Below the pieces are notes generated by a model, which worked only from the letters and a program-made list of their open reading frames with translations, had not been told where the DNA came from and did no database searches. From assembly GCA_017353825.1 (NCBI GenBank), contig JAFMSC010000001.1, forward strand, positions 1 through 37,548: a stretch of 37,548 nucleotides of DNA. Direction: 5' to 3'. The translations under genes and the position numbers were made by a program. This document shows positions 3,466-34,663 of the stretch, in pieces; position 1 is the stretch's first letter; every line of letters starts with the position of its first letter. Origin of the DNA: Hyphomicrobiaceae bacterium. Lineage in GTDB: Bacteria > Pseudomonadota > Alphaproteobacteria > Rhizobiales > Hyphomicrobiaceae.

Positions 3466-3707
3466 GCGGCCACGTGCGGCTCCCCTTGGGGAGAGGACGT
3501 GAGGCCATCACTTGCGATCGTGCACCGTGCGGGCAGCCGATAAAATCGCACGCGCGCGGACGTAAGTCATTTGGCCGAGTTGGTGAGGGAGCGTCTGTGT
3601 TGGGAAGGCTCCTCATCGGGCCCTTTCGGGACGCCTCCTCCACCCCTTCGCTCTGGAGGTTCATTGCAAACCGCTGAGCATCTCAACATCGTGAGGTTGC
3701 GCCCCCC

Positions 3708-5426
3708 GTGTTCTTTGTGGCCCTAGTGACTGACTACGACGGCACCCTGGCCAAGGACGGTCGGGTGGATGGCGCCACCGTCAAGGCCCTGGAGGAGGTG
3801 CGGCGCTGCGGCCGCAAGCTGGTCCTGGTCACCGGCCGCGAGCTTGCTAGCCTTGAACGCGCCTTTCCGGAGCTAGCTCTGTTCGATCTCGTGGTGGCCG
3901 AGAATGGCGCTCTCATCTTCAACCCGGCCAAGAAGCTTGAGACCCTGCTGGCCGAGCCACCCTCGCAGGCGCTGATCGAACGGCTGCGGGCGCGCGCCGT
4001 GGCGCCGCTGTCGGTGGGCCGTACCATCATCGCCACGCGCGAGCCGCACGAGAAGGTCGTCCTGGAGGCGATCCACGAGCTGGGGCTGGAGCTGCATATT
4101 ATCTTCAACAAGGGCGCGGTGATGGTGCTGCCAGGCAACGTCAACAAGGCCTGGGGGCTCAAGCGGGCGCTGAAGGCGCTGTGCCTGTCGCCGCACAACG
4201 TGGTGGGCATCGGCGATGCCGAGAACGACCAGGCGTTCCTGAGCGCCTGCGGCTGCGCCGCCGCCGTGGCCAACGCGCTGGCGTCGGTGAAGGCGCGGGC
4301 CGACATGGTGGTCTCCGATCACGGCGCCGGCGTCGCGGAGCTAGCCCGGCTCATGACCGAGCACGACCTTGTCGGCTGCCGCCTGAACCTTCCGAGGATC
4401 CGACCCGTGATCGGAACCCTGGCGGACGGCGGGGCGGGTAAGGTCCCCGTGTGCCTCAGTCCGTTCGAGACCCTCCTGATCACCGGCTCCTCTGGCGGCG
4501 GCAAGTCCACCTTGGTGACGGCGCTGCTGGAACAGATGCAGGATCTCGCTTTCCAGTTCTGCGTGGTCGATCCGGAGGGGGACTACTCGGAATTTCCCGA
4601 TGCGGTGGTGGTGGGGGACAGCCGGCAAGAGCCGAGGCTGTCGGAAGTCATGCACCTGCTGGGCAAGCCCGATGTGAGCGTGGTTGTGAACCTGCTGGCC
4701 ATCGACCCCCAGGAGCGGCCGGGCTTCCTCGCCAAGTTCCTGCCCGAAATCGCCAAGCTGCGCTCCCAAACCGGTCGGCCGCATTGGATCGTGCTTGACG
4801 AGGCGCATCACTGCCTGCCAGCCGGCCGCGACGCCGCGCCCATGCTTCCCCGCGAGTTCCCGGCCGCGGTCGCAGTGACGGTGCACCCAGAGGAGGTCGC
4901 CCCGCATTTCCTCAAGACCGTGACGACCGTAGTGGGCGTCGGCGACGGCTCGCTCGCCGCCATCGGGAAGTTCTGCAAGGCGACCGGCCGGCCGCTGCCT
5001 CAGCTGGCCGTTGGGCTCAAGGACGCGGAAGTCCACGTGCTCGGCCGCGAGGGCCCGGTCGAGGTGGTCGCGCCGCGCAAGCCCAAGGAGAAGCAGAAGC
5101 GCCACGCGCGCAAGTACGCCGAGGGCGATCTCGGCGCCGACAAGAGCTTCCGCTTCCGTGGTCCCGACAACGCGCTCAACCTGCGCGCCCAGAACCTGTC
5201 GACCTTCCTGCAGATGGGCGAAGGCGTGGACGACAGGACTTGGCTGCACCACCTGCGCGCCGGCGAGTATTCGAGGTGGTTCCGTAATGCCATCAAGGAT
5301 GATGATCTGGCCGCCGAGGCCGCCGTCATCGAGGCGGACGCGTCGCTGTCGCCGGAGGAGAGTAGAGCGCGCATCAAAGACATCATCGACCGCCGCTACA
5401 CTGCGCCTGCGAAAGAGAAGTGCTAG
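3708..5426 (+). CDS. Fusion protein: N-terminal HAD-IIB-type phosphatase domain + C-terminal HerA/FtsK-like P-loop NTPase domain
   Basis: GTG start. HAD motif I 'LVTDYDGTLA', motif II-like 'LVLVTGR', motif IV 'GIGDAENDQAF'. Then Walker A 'ITGSSGGGKST' and Walker B 'WIVLDEAHH'. Confidence 0.8.
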   Translation: MFFVALVTDYDGTLAKDGRVDGATVKALEEVRRCGRKLVLVTGRELASLERAFPELALFDLVVAENGALIFNPAKKLETLLAEPPSQALIERLRARAVAPLSVGRTIIATREPHEKVVLEAIHELGLELHIIFNKGAVMVLPGNVNKAWGLKRALKALCLSPHNVVGIGDAENDQAFLSACGCAAAVANALASVKARADMVVSDHGAGVAELARLMTEHDLVGCRLNLPRIRPVIGTLADGGAGKVPVCLSPFETLLITGSSGGGKSTLVTALLEQMQDLAFQFCVVDPEGDYSEFPDAVVVGDSRQEPRLSEVMHLLGKPDVSVVVNLLAIDPQERPGFLAKFLPEIAKLRSQTGRPHWIVLDEAHHCLPAGRDAAPMLPREFPAAVAVTVHPEEVAPHFLKTVTTVVGVGDGSLAAIGKFCKATGRPLPQLAVGLKDAEVHVLGREGPVEVVAPRKPKEKQKRHARKYAEGDLGADKSFRFRGPDNALNLRAQNLSTFLQMGEGVDDRTWLHHLRAGEYSRWFRNAIKDDDLAAEAAVIEADASLSPEESRARIKDIIDRRYTAPAKEKC

Positions 5427-28986: not shown

Positions 28987-29026
28987 CCGTGATCGACGAC
29001 GCGTGATCGACGACGCGTGACCGACC
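28987..29026. repeat. Tandem repeat, 14 bp x~3 (CGTGATCGACGACG)
   Basis: Two perfect copies plus a degenerate third copy. Confidence 0.9.
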
Positions 29027-29251
29027 GGCTCGGTGACCATTATTGCGCTCGACCGAACGCGCATCTGGCATCCATCGAGGTGACGCTCGCCGGGGCTTGG
29101 TGGCATCGCCCTTAATCGGGCGGCTTCCCTGCGAACGGCGTATTGCGCCTAATTGATGGGCTCGATGCCCTGTTGTTGGGCGCCTCCACCTACGATCTCA
29201 CCCTGATGCTCCGGATTTTCAGCTGGCACAGGCCTTGCTGCCACCGCGTCC

Positions 29252-29362
29252 AGAGTTGGTGGCTAGGGTTCCGGCCCTGCGGGGCGTCTGGTCCGAGAGC
29301 TGCCGCCCGGCGGTGCCGCATCGCCGCCCGGGTGCACGGCGGGACAAAAGCCCGGGAGACCT
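29252..29362 (+). promoter_or_regulatory. Guanidine-I riboswitch aptamer (ykkC-yxkD class, subtype 1)
   Basis: All three conserved blocks are present in the right order and spacing: GGCTAGGGTTCCGG (29261-), CTGGTCCGAGAG (29288-), and ACGGCGGGACAAAAGCCCGGGAGA (29335-29359). It lies ~75 nt upstream of the ABC substrate-binding gene. A 9-bp hairpin AGGACTGGC/GCCAGTCCT follows (29371-29400) with no U-tract, then RBS GAGGGA at 29423. Confidence 0.85.
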
Positions 29363-29436
29363 CGGTGGCCAGGACTGGCTGCGCTCGGTCTCGCCAGTCC
29401 TCGGTCGGAGCAGCGAACGAACGAGGGATATGACCC

Positions 29437-30498
29437 ATGAAGCGCGTTGCCTCTCTCCTTCTTTCCATGACGCTCGCTGTCGGCGCCGGCTCGCCGGTCT
29501 GGGCGGTGTCGAAGAAGGACTTCAACATCGCGTGGACGATCTATGTGGGCTGGATGCCTTGGCCATATGCGGTCGAGACCGGCATCGTCAAGACGTGGGC
29601 CGACAAGTACGGCATCACCATCAACGTCACGCAGATCAACGACTACGTGGAGTCCATCAACCAGTACACAGCCGGCAAGTTCGACGGTGTGACGTTGACC
29701 AACATGGACGCTCTCACGATCCCGGCCGCAGGCGGGGTCGACACCTCGCTCATGATCGTCGGCGACTTCTCCAACGGCAACGACGGCATCGTGCTCAAGC
29801 AGGGCAAGAGCATCGCCGATATCAAGGGCCAGAAGATCAACATGGTGGAGCTGTCGGTCTCCCATTACCTGCTGGCTCGGGCGCTCGCCGGCGCCAAACT
29901 CAAGGAGGCCGACATCAAGGTGGTCAACACCTCCGATGCCGACATCGTCGCCGCCTTCAAGGCCCCAGACTCGACGGCTGTGGTGACCTGGAACCCGCAA
30001 CTCATGGAGGTGAAGGCCGAGCCCGGCGTAACGCTGGTGTTCGATTCAAGCAAGATCCCCGGCGAGATCATCGACACCATGGGCCTCAACACCCAGACGC
30101 TAAAGGACAACCCCAGCCTCGGCAAAGCGCTCGTCGGCATCTGGTACGAGACCATCGCGCTGATGGCGGACGCTGGCGAGAAGGGCAAGGCGGCGCGGGA
30201 AGCCATGGCCAAGCTATCAGGGACCGATCTCGCCGGCTTCGAGGCGCAGCTCAAGACCACGCGCATGTTCTACACGGCCAAGGATGCCGTGGCCTTCAGC
30301 ACCAGCGACGACCTCGCCAAGACCATGGACCTCGTACGCACCTTCTGCTTCGAGCACAACCTCTTGGGCGACGGCGTAAAGAGCAAGGATGCCATCGGCA
30401 TCGCCTTCCCCTCGGGGCAGGTGCTCGGCAACAAGGCCAACGTGAAGCTGCGCTTCGACGCCTCCTACATGAAGCTGGCGCTGGAGGGGAAGCTCTGA
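29437..30498 (+). CDS. ABC transporter periplasmic substrate-binding protein, NitT/TauT family, urea-carboxylase-associated type (candidate guanidine binder)
   Basis: Signal peptide, then 'FNIAWTIYVGWMPWPYA...KTWADKYGI...QINDYVESINQYTAGKFDGVTLTNMDALTIPAAGGVD...GDFSNGNDGIVLK...ELSVSHYLLARAL', which matches from memory the binding protein found next to urea/guanidine carboxylase genes. Confidence 0.9.
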   Translation: MKRVASLLLSMTLAVGAGSPVWAVSKKDFNIAWTIYVGWMPWPYAVETGIVKTWADKYGITINVTQINDYVESINQYTAGKFDGVTLTNMDALTIPAAGGVDTSLMIVGDFSNGNDGIVLKQGKSIADIKGQKINMVELSVSHYLLARALAGAKLKEADIKVVNTSDADIVAAFKAPDSTAVVTWNPQLMEVKAEPGVTLVFDSSKIPGEIIDTMGLNTQTLKDNPSLGKALVGIWYETIALMADAGEKGKAAREAMAKLSGTDLAGFEAQLKTTRMFYTAKDAVAFSTSDDLAKTMDLVRTFCFEHNLLGDGVKSKDAIGIAFPSGQVLGNKANVKLRFDASYMKLALEGKL

Positions 30499-30711
30499 CC
30501 TCCCTCTCCCCGCGTCACCAATTTTGTCACAGGCTCCTTCAGCGCAAGGTGAGGGCCTGATGAGGGCCAGGTTGAAGGGGCAGCAGTAAACTCCGAGCGT
30601 CGTCTGTGGCTGCCCCTCACCCCCTTGCCCGTTCGCCCGCGGGCGGTTGTTGGGTCGCATACCTGCCTGGACGGTTGAGGGCGAACGGGGAGAGGGTCAC
30701 GGGAGGGCCGC

Positions 30712-31533
30712 ATGCGCCGCGCCATGAACATCGCGCCGGAGCGGACCGGGCGGCTGGCGCTGGCGCTGCTGCCGTTCGCGCTGATCGCCCTCGTCTACGT
30801 GGCGGGCTCCGCGCAGCGGCGGGCGGTGAACCCCAACGACAAGCTGCTGCCGCCGGTTTCGGAGATGGCGGACGCGGTGCACCGGGCGGCGCTTGAGCCG
30901 GACCGGCGCTCGGGCGAGATCGTGCTGTGGACGGACACCTCGGCCAGCTTGGGGCGCCTGGGCGCTGGCTTGGGATTGGCCACGCTGATCGGGCTCACCC
31001 TGGGCCTGGCCATCGGCGTGCTGCCACTGGTGGCGGCGGCGCTGGCGCCGCTCGTCGCCGTCATCTGTATGGTGCCGCCGATGGCCATTCTGCCGGTGCT
31101 TTTCATCGTGTTCGGCCTGGGCGAGCTCTCGAAGGTGGTGCTGATCGTGATCGGCGTGGCGCCGTTCCTGGTGCGCGATCTCGCCTTTGCCGCGGCGCGG
31201 CTGCCCACGGAGCATCTCGTCAAGGCCCAGACGCTCGGCGCCTCCACCTGGCAGGTGGCCACGCGGGTGGTGGCCCCGCAGATCATGCCACGCCTAATCG
31301 AGGCGGTGCGACTGTCGCTCGGGCCCGCATTCCTGTTCCTGATCTCGGCCGAGGCCATCGCCGCCGAGAGCGGGCTCGGCTACCGCATCTTCCTGGTCCG
31401 GCGCTATCTCGCCATGGATACGATCCTGCCCTACGTGGCCTGGATCACGCTCATCGCCTATGCCATGGACCTGGGGCTGGCGCGCCTGTCGCGGGCAGCC
31501 TTCCCCTGGGCTCAAGCAGACGAGGGGCGCTGA
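30712..31533 (+). CDS. ABC transporter permease (NitT/TauT family)
   Basis: GGGAGGG RBS, about 6 TM segments, and an EAA-like loop 'AQTLGASTWQVATRVVAPQIMPRLIEA'. Confidence 0.9.
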   Translation: MRRAMNIAPERTGRLALALLPFALIALVYVAGSAQRRAVNPNDKLLPPVSEMADAVHRAALEPDRRSGEIVLWTDTSASLGRLGAGLGLATLIGLTLGLAIGVLPLVAAALAPLVAVICMVPPMAILPVLFIVFGLGELSKVVLIVIGVAPFLVRDLAFAAARLPTEHLVKAQTLGASTWQVATRVVAPQIMPRLIEAVRLSLGPAFLFLISAEAIAAESGLGYRIFLVRRYLAMDTILPYVAWITLIAYAMDLGLARLSRAAFPWAQADEGR

Positions 31534-32300
31534 TGGGCGCGATCTCGGTGCGCAACGTGTGGGTGGAATACGGCGACCAGATCGTGCTGGAGCGCATCAA
31601 CTTGGAGATCGCTTCCGGCGCGTTCGTGTCGATCGTCGGCCCTTCGGGATGCGGCAAGAGCACGCTCCTGCGCCTCCTCTTGGGGCAGGAAAAGCCCACG
31701 CGCGGCACCATCCTGATCGACGGCAGGCCGCTGCCGGACGAGCCTGGGCCCGATCGCGGTATCGTGTACCAGCGCTATTCGGTGTTTCCGCACCTCACCG
31801 TTCTCGGCAACGTACTCATCGCCTACGAGTTCGCCGGCAGTCGATTGTTGGGCCGGCTCATGGGCCGCGCGCGCCGCGCAGCCATCGACGAGGCCCTTGC
31901 GCTCATCAAGGCTGTCGGATTGGCGCTCCATGCCAAGAAATATCCAAGCACCCTGTCGGGCGGCATGCAGCAACGGCTGGCAATTGCCCAGGCGCTCGCG
32001 CGCAAGCCGCGGGTCCTGCTGCTCGACGAGCCGTTCGGCGCGCTCGATCCGGGCATTCGCGCGCATATGCACGAGCTTATTCGCCCGCTGTGGCGCGAGC
32101 ATGGTATGACCGTCCTCATGGTCACCCACGACATCAAGGAGGGCTTCGCGCTCGGCACAAGGCTCATCGTGCTCGACAAATGGCGCGACGACCCGCAGGC
32201 CGCCGAGCGGTTCGGTGCCGTCATTACATACGATCTCGACCTCACCCGCGACAACGCCGGGCCGGTGCGCTTCTGCAATGAGCCGACCGTCGCAAGCTAA
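31533..32300 (+). CDS. ABC transporter ATP-binding protein
   Basis: ATG overlaps the permease stop (TGATG). Walker A 'GPSGCGKST', signature 'LSGGMQQR', Walker B 'LLLDEPFGALD'. The ORF part upstream of 31533 overlaps the permease and was rejected. Confidence 0.92.
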   Translation: MGAISVRNVWVEYGDQIVLERINLEIASGAFVSIVGPSGCGKSTLLRLLLGQEKPTRGTILIDGRPLPDEPGPDRGIVYQRYSVFPHLTVLGNVLIAYEFAGSRLLGRLMGRARRAAIDEALALIKAVGLALHAKKYPSTLSGGMQQRLAIAQALARKPRVLLLDEPFGALDPGIRAHMHELIRPLWREHGMTVLMVTHDIKEGFALGTRLIVLDKWRDDPQAAERFGAVITYDLDLTRDNAGPVRFCNEPTVAS

Positions 32301-32334
32301 GGGTCGCCGACAGCGGGGACAGATCATTTCGCGC

Positions 32335-32922
32335 ATGGAACCTGTCGAGACTCATAATAGCCGGCTGTTCATTCGTCAGGTTCGCTCCCGTGACGTGGAG
32401 GACGCGCTCGTCTACCGGGACGGCGCAGAGTTCAGCCGCTATCTTCAGCACATCCCTCGCCCTTTCACGCGGCGGCACGCCGAGGCGTCGGGGGCGCGAA
32501 ACAGGGTGGAGCCCTGGGATCGGTCCGCGACCTTTAGGGAGGCGTTGACGGGAACCGTGATAGGCACAGTCAACCTCGATGTTGACCAAACCCACGGTAT
32601 GGCCATGCTGGGCTCCGCCATCGGCCACGCGCAGGGGGGAAAGCGAAGCGGCTGGGAAGCTGCCCCGGCGGCGGTTGGGTGGGGTCTCGGCGCGTTCGAT
32701 CTCGCCAACCTCTGGGGCACGACGGATGTGCGCAATGGGCGTGGGCGGCAGGCCGCTAGGCGATCGCAGCGGCTGATCGAGAAGCTCGCAAGTAGGCGCG
32801 CGGCGACGTTCCTGCCACGGCTGGCTCGCGATGGGCGACCGGATAAGCTCGATCATGGCTCTCCGCGCCCAAGTGCCTCTCAATACCTCAATGCTTGGGT
32901 AGCCCAAGGAGCAGCCGCATGA
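32335..32922 (+). CDS. GNAT-like (RimJ/RimL-type) acetyltransferase ORF, divergent and possibly degenerate
   Basis: 'SRLFIRQVRSRDVEDALVY...EFSRYL', 'VIGTVNLDVD...LGSAIGHAQGGKRSGWEAAPAAVGWGLGAFDLANLW', 'RSQRLIEKL...LARDGRP' follow GNAT topology. The acetyl-CoA motif is altered (GGKRSG where RimJ/L-type GNATs have WGKGxA). Visibly more A/T-ending codons than the neighbours. The stop overlaps the next ATG (ATGA). Confidence 0.5.
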   Translation: MEPVETHNSRLFIRQVRSRDVEDALVYRDGAEFSRYLQHIPRPFTRRHAEASGARNRVEPWDRSATFREALTGTVIGTVNLDVDQTHGMAMLGSAIGHAQGGKRSGWEAAPAAVGWGLGAFDLANLWGTTDVRNGRGRQAARRSQRLIEKLASRRAATFLPRLARDGRPDKLDHGSPRPSASQYLNAWVAQGAAA

Positions 32923-34127
32923 TCTTTGACCGATCAATCTGCCGTTCCCGTAAGGCCGGGCTCAGGCCGCCGCGCGATCAGGCTCCTTGCCACCACCCGG
33001 ACTTCGACAAGCTCAACAGCCAGGGCTGGAAGGCGCTGGAGGCGGAGGCGGGTCTCTCCGAGGACGGTTGGCGCCGCGAGCAGAAGTGGGCGCTCGACAT
33101 GGGGCTGCCGGGTGCGGAGAGCCTCACCGACAGGTCCATCCCAACCTTCGCCCGCGGGGAGCTTCCCCACTTCGCGGGCATCAACACCTTCCTAAAGGCG
33201 CCCTACGTGGAGAACATCCGCGATGTCGGCAAGTACGACGCCGCCGTGATCGGCATCCCCTTCGATGCAGGCACCACCTACCGCCCTGGCACCCGCTTCG
33301 GCCCCCAGGGCATCCGCCGCATCTCGGCGCTCTATACGCCCTACAACTATGAGCTGGGCGTGGACCTCAGGGAGCAGATGACCTTGTGCGATGCCGGCGA
33401 CGTGTTCACCATCCCCGCCAACCTGGAGAAGAGCTTCGACCAGATCACACGCGGGGTGGCGCACGTGTTTTCCTCCGGCGCGCTGCCGTTGATGCTGGGC
33501 GGTGACCACTCGATCGGTTTCCCCTGCGTGCGCGGCATCGCCCAGTGCACATCAAAGAGGATCGGCATTGTGCATTTCGATCGCCACATCGACATCCAGG
33601 AAAAGGACCTGGACGAGCGCATGCACACCACGCCGTGGTACTGGGCCACCAACCTGCCCAACGTGCCCGCCGCCAACCTGGTCCAGCTCGGCATCGGCGG
33701 CTGGCAGGTGCCACGCTACGGCGTGGCAGAGGCGAGGAAGCGCGGCACCAACGTGCTCACCATCGCCGATATCGAGAAGATGGGCCTCGACAAGGCCGCC
33801 GAGATCGCCCTGGAGCTGGCGTGGAAGGACGCCGACGCGGTCTACATCTCCTTCGACGTGGATTCGGTGGACTGCGGCTTCGTGCCAGGGACCGGCTGGC
33901 CCGAGCCTGGCGGCTTTCTGCCGCGCGAGGCACTGAAGCTCTTGGGGCTGGTGGCCGCCGAGGGCATTTGCGGCCTGGAGGTCGTGGAGGTGTCGCCACC
34001 TTACGATACATCCGACATCACCGCTCTGCTTGGTGTGCGCGTGGGCGTTGAGGCGCTGGGCTCGCTGGTCGCCCACGGCAGGCTCGGCAGTCAAAAGGCG
34101 CTCATCGACAATCCGGTCGCGTATTGA
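32919..34127 (+). CDS. Arginase/agmatinase-fold ureohydrolase, long form (candidate guanidine or guanidino-compound hydrolase)
   Basis: AAGGAG sits 7 nt upstream of the ATG at 32919. 'LMLGGDHSIGFP', 'IVHFDRHIDI', 'YISFDVDSVDCGFVPGTGWPEPGG' provide the full His/Asp binuclear-metal ligand set. About 95 aa precede the first conserved block ('FAGINTFLKAPY'), which is longer than in SpeB-type agmatinases. Confidence 0.9.
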   Translation: MIFDRSICRSRKAGLRPPRDQAPCHHPDFDKLNSQGWKALEAEAGLSEDGWRREQKWALDMGLPGAESLTDRSIPTFARGELPHFAGINTFLKAPYVENIRDVGKYDAAVIGIPFDAGTTYRPGTRFGPQGIRRISALYTPYNYELGVDLREQMTLCDAGDVFTIPANLEKSFDQITRGVAHVFSSGALPLMLGGDHSIGFPCVRGIAQCTSKRIGIVHFDRHIDIQEKDLDERMHTTPWYWATNLPNVPAANLVQLGIGGWQVPRYGVAEARKRGTNVLTIADIEKMGLDKAAEIALELAWKDADAVYISFDVDSVDCGFVPGTGWPEPGGFLPREALKLLGLVAAEGICGLEVVEVSPPYDTSDITALLGVRVGVEALGSLVAHGRLGSQKALIDNPVAY

Positions 34128-34135
34128 GGCCCGCC

Positions 34136-34663
34136 ATGCATCGCGATCATGACCACGCCCATGACCACGCCCACCGCCGGAGCGACAGTGATGGCCACCA
34201 CGACCTCGCCCAGGATGACGGCCACCACCACGACCATCGCCACGTAGGGCCCGGCCACAACCACAGGCCTACGCTCAGCAGCGTGGCGCAGTGGCAGGTG
34301 CCGCACCTTCACCCGAACGAGGCCCGACCCAGCACCCAGGGCGAGGCCGACCTCGACCAGGTGGAGGCCGCCTTCATCGAGGGCTTCCTCGCCGCCAGCG
34401 ACCCCACCAGCTTCCTCCGCCTCGCGGGCATCCCCTTCAGCATGACGGCGGGCGACGGCGCGTCGCTGTGGCTCCTGCGCGTGGAGACCGAGGTTGTGGC
34501 CGACATCGGCGCCCTCACGCCGCACCTCGGCGGCGGCTCGTTCCGCTACGACCCGCTGCCAGCCAACCTCGTCTCGCGCCGTCGCCGCCTGCGTTTTGTC
34601 TATTTCGATGGGACCGGGCTGAGGGCCTTGACCTTTGTCGACGTGCGACAGGGAGCCCGATGA
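34136..34663 (+). CDS. Uncharacterised protein with His/Asp-rich N-terminus (candidate metallochaperone)
   Basis: ATG lies 8 nt after the ureohydrolase stop, with GAGG 6 nt upstream. The first 45 aa carry about 17 His ('HRDHDHAHDHAH...GHHDLAQDDGHHHDHRHVGPGHNH'). The remainder is a ~130-aa globular-looking domain with very high GC3. No family recognised. Confidence 0.7.
   Translation: MHRDHDHAHDHAHRRSDSDGHHDLAQDDGHHHDHRHVGPGHNHRPTLSSVAQWQVPHLHPNEARPSTQGEADLDQVEAAFIEGFLAASDPTSFLRLAGIPFSMTAGDGASLWLLRVETEVVADIGALTPHLGGGSFRYDPLPANLVSRRRRLRFVYFDGTGLRALTFVDVRQGAR

Follow-up and report, generated by a model that had tools for sequence, protein, structure and literature searches.

A guanidine import and hydrolysis locus of an alphaproteobacterium and HisR, a conserved histidine-rich partner of GdmH with a candidate role in nickel supply

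The locus, its hydrolase and its importer

A stretch of 37,548 nucleotides from an uncultured alphaproteobacterium (Hyphomicrobiaceae bacterium; GenBank assembly GCA_017353825.1, contig JAFMSC010000001.1, positions 1 to 37,548 of the forward strand), here called the window, carries a guanidine-I riboswitch aptamer and, on its 3' side, six closely packed, co-directional open reading frames (ORFs) on the plus strand. The first three encode the binding protein, permease and ATPase of an importer of the ATP-binding cassette (ABC) type; these are followed by a GNAT-like ORF, by gdmH, the gene for a guanidine hydrolase of the arginase fold, and by the gene for a histidine-rich orphan protein that is named HisR here. 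An earlier note, made from the letters of the sequence, had described an aptamer with six co-directional genes behind it, and both the aptamer and all six ORFs are confirmed. The junctions it gave are exact: the permease stop and the ATPase start overlap in TGATG at 31531-31535 (read from the sequence), the GNAT-like ORF and gdmH overlap in ATGA at 32919-32922, and 8 nt separate gdmH from the ATG at 34136. The whole is probably a guanidine-scavenging operon under riboswitch and σ54 control, in which a GimABC-type importer takes up guanidine, GdmH hydrolyzes it and HisR may serve as the nickel partner of the enzyme.

The gene gdmH (32919..34127, plus strand) is predicted to encode a nickel-dependent guanidine hydrolase, or guanidinase, and its product scores 251 bits against the arginase family. 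The crystallised GdmH of Synechocystis (PDB 7ESR/7OI1) is matched with 548 bits and 64.6% identity, and the guanidinase of Nitrospira inopinata (9FEK) with 522 bits and 59.8% identity; a guanidinobutyrase, which follows as the third-best kind of PDB match, reaches only 174 bits. The ligand motifs GGDH at 194, HFDRHID at 219 and SFDVDSVD at 311 and the active-site Trp motif GTGWPEPGG at 324 align with 7ESR either identically or with conservative changes. By sequence, the window enzyme is assigned as a GdmH orthologue and not as an agmatinase, guanidinobutyrase or arginase paralogue. The arrangement had been taken to be rare, a view that does not survive the search for relatives of this enzyme, which found at least 578 among genomes representing bacterial and archaeal species. 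The best 80 of these share 75-91% identity with it and all come from Alphaproteobacteria, among them members of the Xanthobacteraceae, Bradyrhizobium, Mesorhizobium, Sinorhizobium and Ancylobacter.

GdmH proteins of the window's clade carry an N-terminal extension of ~30 residues with a conserved HHPD (window 32919-33010; L167:5695-6939, the L numbers being labels of related loci). The extension precedes the part that can be aligned with the crystallised enzymes, and it may matter for the docking of HisR or for metal transfer.

The importer genes lie between the aptamer and the GNAT-like ORF. A periplasmic, GimA-like substrate-binding protein with NMT1 domains (29437..30498, plus strand) matches TIGR03427 with 551 bits against a cut-off of 334, a GimB-like permease of TauC/SsuC type (30712..31533, plus strand) scores 60 bits against BPD_transp_1, and a GimC-like ATPase (31533..32300, plus strand) scores 119 bits against ABC_tran. 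As the equivalog cut-off is exceeded, the predicted system is a TIGR03427/GimABC-type guanidine importer. In most related loci the binding protein is retained at 54-83% identity, and the permease gene is syntenic across them. Guanidine is bound in GimA by aromatic and Asp residues, namely W59, W62, F205, D135 and D233, with a Kd of ~97 nM (PMC12704784). The window protein has a Trp pair, W39-x-x-W42, with the spacing of W59/W62, a resemblance that is no more than suggestive.

An unusually long spacer of 213 nt (30499-30711, plus strand) separates the permease gene from that of the binding protein and is enclosed by a perfect inverted repeat of 11 nt, CCCTCTCCCCG at 30502-30512 and CGGGGAGAGGG at 30686-30696. 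A repeated mobile element was considered as an explanation of this spacer and rejected, as the sequence of the inverted-repeat arm occurs only once in the window.

The coupling of such an importer to an arginase-fold enzyme had been put forward in the earlier note as a distinct arrangement, but it has already been characterised in Synechocystis sp. PCC 6803, where gdmH is under a guanidine-I riboswitch and beside the NitT/TauT-type importer GimABC (PMC12704784). The window shares riboswitch, hydrolase and importer type with that cluster and differs from it in having the importer genes first, in an apparent single transcription unit. Accordingly placed among known systems, the module is an alphaproteobacterial variant of GdmH-based guanidine assimilation, and its importer-enzyme coupling is not novel: its description as a guanidine import and hydrolysis module stands, on the GdmH orthologue, the riboswitch and the importer, whereas that as a distinct system does not. 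Nitrospira inopinata also combines a guanidine-I riboswitch with a related guanidinase and no HypA/HypB-type chaperones nearby, but it has an APC-family permease where the window has an ABC importer, and no accessory gene is reported there where the window has a conserved His-rich partner (PMC11410670).

The riboswitch class and the TIGR03427-type importer are further shared with guanidine carboxylase operons, such as that of Pseudomonas syringae. These operons consist of the riboswitch, the ABC importer, the carboxylase, carboxyguanidine deiminase and allophanate hydrolase. Carboxylation there is ATP-dependent, whereas the window would use nickel-dependent hydrolysis and contains no carboxylase-pathway genes. 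Pfam scans of the other ORFs of the window with high GC content at third codon positions (GC3) recognised none of them as a urease, a carboxylase, an allophanate hydrolase or HypA/HypB, and motif scans of the window found no HypA, HypB, UreG or CobW signature, in agreement with the earlier note, which had reported the absence of carboxylase, HypA/HypB and urease.

The gdmH-hisR pair and its nickel context

The last gene of the operon, hisR (34136..34663, plus strand), matches no known family. Residues 1-66 of its product form a disordered tract rich in His and Asp that includes the motifs GPGHNH and QWQVPH, and residues 67-175 form a compact α/β domain. AlphaFold2 likewise leaves the N-terminal tract disordered, and a model of the C-terminal domain alone has a mean predicted local distance difference test (pLDDT) value of 87.8 and a predicted template modelling (pTM) score of 0.72. 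The gene call of the source collection gives HisR 126 residues from an internal start and so leaves out the whole His-rich N-terminus; homologues indicate the ATG at 34136 as the conserved start.

HisR belongs to a family that comprises 1,438 clusters at 90% identity, for which every name supplied by a source is "hypothetical protein" and none of which has a Pfam domain, and only 240 clusters at 50% identity among 1.84 billion representatives. Alignments display a variable His/Asp-rich N-terminus that typically begins MH(R/D/G)xH, nearly invariant GPGHN and QWQTPH motifs, and a well-conserved C-terminal domain of ~105 residues. The His tract is retained across the family: the median protein has at least 7 His residues ahead of the GHN motif, and 58 of 83 HisR proteins start with 'MH'. 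A divergent HisR (L078:11214-11618) lacks the N-terminal tract and has instead a His-rich C-terminal tail, HDHAHAHGHDHHHHDHPH. That the tract is kept, and has here moved to the other end, is what one would expect if it were a functional metal-binding module.

Similarity searches place HisR apart from characterised proteins. There was no match in Pfam or NCBIfam, even at E ≤ 1 with 21 diverse members in the case of Pfam, and none in sequence and profile searches of the PDB. Foldseek searches of the PDB with the full-length and C-domain models gave best E values of 0.15 and 0.32 and TM scores of ≤ 0.29, none of them significant. By sequence and predicted fold, HisR appears to lie outside the HypA, HypB, UreE, UreG, SlyD and CooJ families and to have no GTPase motif or P-loop. 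Histidine-rich nickel chaperones and stores include HypB with its N-terminal His stretch, UreE with its His tail, Hpn, SlyD and CooJ. HisR resembles these proteins in joining a flexible His tract, N- or C-terminal, to a folded domain and in being encoded beside a nickel enzyme, but it has no sequence, profile or fold similarity to them, so that the likeness extends only to a likely mode of action. The literature also knows a 'naturally His-rich HypB' (PMC11399263).

Candidate fusions of HisR with other proteins in public protein sets (P0218, P0245 and P0145 among the hits of an exhaustive profile search) were rejected. In the 460-aa and 258-aa Arginase+HisR proteins the linker is an out-of-frame translation of gdmH, which marks them as frameshift read-throughs, and a HisR+shikimate-kinase fusion looks like an artefact of a chimeric or frameshifted gene call.

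The position of hisR is nearly constant. In 83 of 84 alphaproteobacterial loci it is the next gene downstream of gdmH and, when metagenomic loci are found through HisR, gdmH lies directly upstream of it in 73 of the 74 that are informative; four further look-ups gave the same pairing. The comparison of genomes for co-occurrence, which the earlier note had named as a check, thus returned a clear association for hisR, and the aptamer core accompanies most loci as well (see below). The gap between the two genes has a median of 9 nt and is at most 30 nt in 69 of 83 loci, and in complete plasmid records the genes overlap by 11 nt and carry the annotations "agmatinase family protein" for gdmH and "hypothetical protein" for hisR. 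Sinorhizobium fredii NGR234 has a copy on its megaplasmid. The pairing is kept when a different ABC transporter (~28% identity) stands upstream. It is kept in Ancylobacter-type loci, which have no transporter between riboswitch and gdmH and a riboswitch 100-185 nt upstream of gdmH. It is kept also in 14 loci in which the upstream sequence is ample yet contains no Guanidine-I match that reaches the Rfam gathering score (L005, L007, L008, L010, L013, L014, L019, L032, L036, L056, L066, L068, L070 and L082), several of which have a different ABC transporter upstream. HisR is therefore a near-obligate partner of GdmH in Alphaproteobacteria, independent of transporter and riboswitch.

Such strict synteny and close spacing suggest stoichiometric co-production, and one explanation makes HisR a subunit of GdmH with a structural or regulatory task, for example to stabilise the hexamer, gate the narrow substrate tunnel or inhibit the enzyme, with the His tract secondary. 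Heteromeric nickel ureohydrolases do exist, as in the α/β complex of metformin hydrolase, and the conserved N-terminal extension of GdmH in the window's clade would suit a contact of this kind. However, the Synechocystis and Nitrospira enzymes are active as homohexamers without such a subunit, a catalytic core that is 65% identical should need no new one, and the relocated His tract of L078 argues for selection on the tract itself. A subunit role is accordingly rather improbable.

The genes found around the pair in other genomes point to nickel. A HupE/UreJ nickel permease gene (PF04955, 173 bits) directly follows hisR in 13 loci (L035, L037, L039, L041-L043, L045, L046, L049-L051, L064 and L067) and lies just upstream of the riboswitch in L015 and L053; Mesorhizobium, Sinorhizobium, Hansschlegelia and Methylopila are the genera in which it is added to gdmH-hisR. 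The window itself has no HupE/UreJ gene. In at least 7 Xanthobacteraceae loci without a guanidine riboswitch, a gene for a NikR-type regulator overlaps or abuts the start of gdmH (L007, L008, L010, L012, L013, L014 and L019), and tblastn detects NikR also in L005, L053, L091, L093, L101 and L163-L165. The NikR loci suggest that gdmH-hisR can be nickel-controlled in place of guanidine-controlled, and NikR and HupE genes together lend indirect support to the predicted nickel dependence of GdmH.

Published work describes activation of GdmH, MefH and DmgH as requiring co-encoded HypA/HypB-type proteins. Motif patterns for HypA, HypB and CobW matched nothing in either the 84 loci from genomes (±10 kb) or the 80 from metagenomes, and no HypA/HypB-type Pfam domain occurs in three annotated loci. 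The hypA-hypB-mefHαβ-hupE operons of Aminobacter and Pseudomonas similarly unite a GdmH-related nickel ureohydrolase with nickel genes that include hupE, but they have HypA/HypB and a heteromeric enzyme where the window has a single enzyme gene and HisR (PMC11399263). In Synechocystis the maturases are GhaA and GhaB; the gene after gdmH in the window encodes an unrelated His-rich orphan.

A second explanation of these observations is that HisR is a nickel store or buffer that soaks up incoming Ni2+, for example Ni2+ entering through HupE, and provides Hpn-like protection or a local pool without handing the metal to GdmH. The His/Asp-rich tract is of low complexity and variable in length and position, HupE/UreJ is the neighbour in 13 loci, and HisR has neither a GTPase nor a known chaperone fold, all of which would suit a store. 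A conserved, folded C-terminal domain of ~105 residues would, however, be superfluous in a pure buffer, and hisR is nearly always adjacent to gdmH, at a spacing that suggests translational coupling, even when the locus has no nickel transporter. Pure storage is therefore unlikely, although it retains a small chance.

Urease genes, recognised by UreG or UreC motifs, occur in the flanks of L013, L040, L052, L064 and L081 and of L158 and L163-L165. Their presence near gdmH-hisR fits urea as the product that is passed on. Other Rfam matches in the related loci are a 5_ureB_sRNA in L013 and a ROSE element in L068.

The control region and a probable decaying insertion

The Guanidine-I (ykkC subtype 1) aptamer occupies 29252..29360 on the plus strand and matches the Rfam covariance model RF00442 over model positions 1-107 of 107 with 82 bits against a gathering score of 63 (E = 2.6e-13). 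Its conserved core is intact, and of 85 sequences (the 84 related loci and the window) 62 have the core pattern upstream and on the same strand. Guanidine as the riboswitch ligand is in keeping with the predicted functions of the genes downstream. A GC-rich hairpin with a stem of ~13 bp in the minimum-free-energy fold (29365..29406, plus strand) is the putative expression platform, and a Shine-Dalgarno sequence, GAGGGA (29423-29428, plus strand), lies 3' of it. In this riboswitch class the platform is typically an intrinsic terminator, which is disrupted when guanidine binds.

A σ54 (RpoN)-type -24/-12 promoter motif, TGGCACaggccTTGCT, with the form TGGCAC-N5-TTGCT, occupies 29224..29239 on the plus strand and ends 12 nt before the aptamer. 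It is the sole match to TGGCAY-N5-TTGCW on either strand of the whole window, in which 0.05 would be expected. Of 61 aptamer-bearing loci, 43 have the strict motif 36-40 nt ahead of the aptamer core, compared with a background of 0.0032 per 90 nt, and ~8 further aptamer-bearing loci have it with one mismatch; Ancylobacter-type and Sinorhizobium loci are without it. Transcription from this motif would start at the first nucleotides of the aptamer, with a predicted start at ~29249-29251. A promoter of σ54 type requires an activator, plausibly one that senses nitrogen limitation, and its position abutting the aptamer suggests two layers of control, by nitrogen and by guanidine. In Synechocystis, gdmH expression is additionally under the nitrogen regulator NtcA (PMC12704784). 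Both systems would thus have a second, nitrogen-responsive layer, although it acts through an NtcA/σ70 promoter in the cyanobacterium and a σ54-type promoter in the window.

A tandem direct repeat, two copies of GTGATCGACGACGC followed by GTGACCGAC, is present at ~28988-29016 (plus strand), ~210 nt upstream of the σ54 motif, and could be an activator binding site.

The fourth gene stands apart from the others. The GNAT-like ORF (32335..32922, plus strand) is of RimJ/RimL type and matches Acetyltransf_3 (PF13302) with 38.4 bits, above the threshold of 25.4. It is open, co-directional with its neighbours and overlaps the gdmH start, and these properties, together with the Pfam score, would fit a reading in which all six genes form a distinct system for the assimilation of guanidine or guanidino acids and the acetyltransferase modifies substrate or product. 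Comparison with other loci speaks against this. No counterpart of the ORF occurs in the 84 related loci, and it forms an insertion of ~620 bp that parts gdmH from the ATPase gene; riboswitch and gdmH are 3.56 kb apart in the window and 2.8-2.95 kb apart in typical loci, an excess explained by the size of the ORF. Homologues are few: a set of 5.8 billion protein clusters contains only 16, of which the best has 58% identity. Neither of the two closest that are intact has a GimC or GdmH match alongside, on contigs of only ~1.5 kb.

The sequence of the GNAT-like ORF is also decayed. It is substituted at 17 of 59 columns that are invariant in ten homologues, whereas each homologue, left out in turn, is substituted at 0-4. 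The loop that binds the acetyl-CoA pyrophosphate has changed from WGKGIG to GGKRSG, a conserved Tyr is replaced (Y174H), there is an insertion of 7 residues, and the PF00583 match present in all homologues is missing. Its GC3 is 0.70, out of line with the 0.84-0.92 of the neighbouring genes. Synteny, decay and codon usage led to rejection of the ORF as a conserved accessory gene, and it is probably a recent, lineage-specific insertion that is non-functional and decaying, with its frame still open. With an enzyme orthologous to guanidine-specific hydrolases besides, a distinct six-gene system is extremely improbable. The two extra genes for which the earlier note found no role hence part ways: the His-rich ORF is real and an orphan, and the GNAT-like ORF is no accessory gene.

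The window appears to span an entire metagenomic contig. Outside the operon, its genes include ilvIH and miaA and those for a RecQ-type helicase, a LysR regulator, an amino-acid permease and an FMN-dependent dehydrogenase. A stop-to-stop ORF of 582 residues at 3678-5426 (plus strand) has matches to a HAD-type hydrolase and a HerA/DUF87 P-loop domain, a combination that is unusual and unrelated to the guanidine locus.

HisR as a candidate nickel partner of GdmH

Several steps can be proposed for the operon, by which its host would scavenge guanidine. Transcription would begin at the σ54-type promoter that abuts the leader, and the guanidine-I riboswitch would gate read-through into the genes. 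The GimABC-type importer would then bring in guanidine present at low concentration, and GdmH, judged by its orthology to two characterised enzymes, would split it into urea and ammonium. Urea would pass to a urease encoded elsewhere. HisR would do the job that GhaA and GhaB, which are HypA/HypB-like, do in cyanobacteria, and would do it without a GTPase. The pairing of gdmH with hisR, the nickel genes of related loci and the σ54 promoter all go beyond the earlier note.

A nickel role for HisR is proposed because its partner is a nickel enzyme without Hyp signatures nearby, because HupE and NikR genes are neighbours, and because the His tract has been kept. Two claims of different reach can be made. 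From this context, the chances are about even that HisR binds Ni2+ through the His tract and the GHN motif and acts in the delivery or buffering of nickel for GdmH's dinuclear site. A more far-reaching proposal, made tentatively and with chances a little short of even, is that HisR represents a new GTPase-independent family of nickel metallochaperones or insertases, with an unsolved fold, that is dedicated to GdmH and replaces GhaA/GhaB across Alphaproteobacteria.

Several points weigh against this picture of the operon and of HisR. As to control, the hairpin at 29365-29406 has no U-tract and a terminator scan detected no canonical intrinsic terminator after the aptamer, and the 260 nt upstream of the σ54 motif contain no conserved NtrC palindrome of enterobacterial type. 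The pairing has two genuine-looking exceptions, L040 and L099. The absence of HypA/HypB applies to ~10 kb around the pair, scanned with motif patterns and in three loci with Pfam, and other parts of the genomes may contain such genes. A tract rich in His can be incidental, and the C-terminal domain of HisR resembles no known metallochaperone, so the argument for its role is one of context. No earlier description of the His-rich gene was found in the open literature searched, a search that did not extend to Funck et al. 2022 and Nelson et al. 2017. Finally, the N. inopinata guanidinase is active when produced in E. coli, although nickel occupancy is partial at 0.42 Ni per subunit, and comammox loci are without nickel chaperones (PMC11410670). 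An active enzyme from E. coli implies that a dedicated factor is helpful rather than indispensable.

Hydrolysis of guanidine by GdmH is a recently recognised nitrogen route, in which nickel is used where relatives of the enzyme use manganese. In the comammox study, the absence of chaperones was explicitly called unexpected (PMC11410670). What appears to be new in the window and its relatives, as far as can be inferred, is a conserved, nickel-linked orphan partner in place of Hyp-type maturases. Found with gdmH in hundreds of soil and rhizobial Alphaproteobacteria, HisR is a concrete candidate for GTPase-free nickel supply, and nickel acquisition by GdmH becomes a directly testable question. 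If the proposal is true, the HisR family would account for the nickel supply of GdmH in lineages without Hyp-type maturases at the locus. Alphaproteobacterial GdmH may need HisR when it is placed in heterologous hosts, for example for guanidine detoxification in engineered strains.

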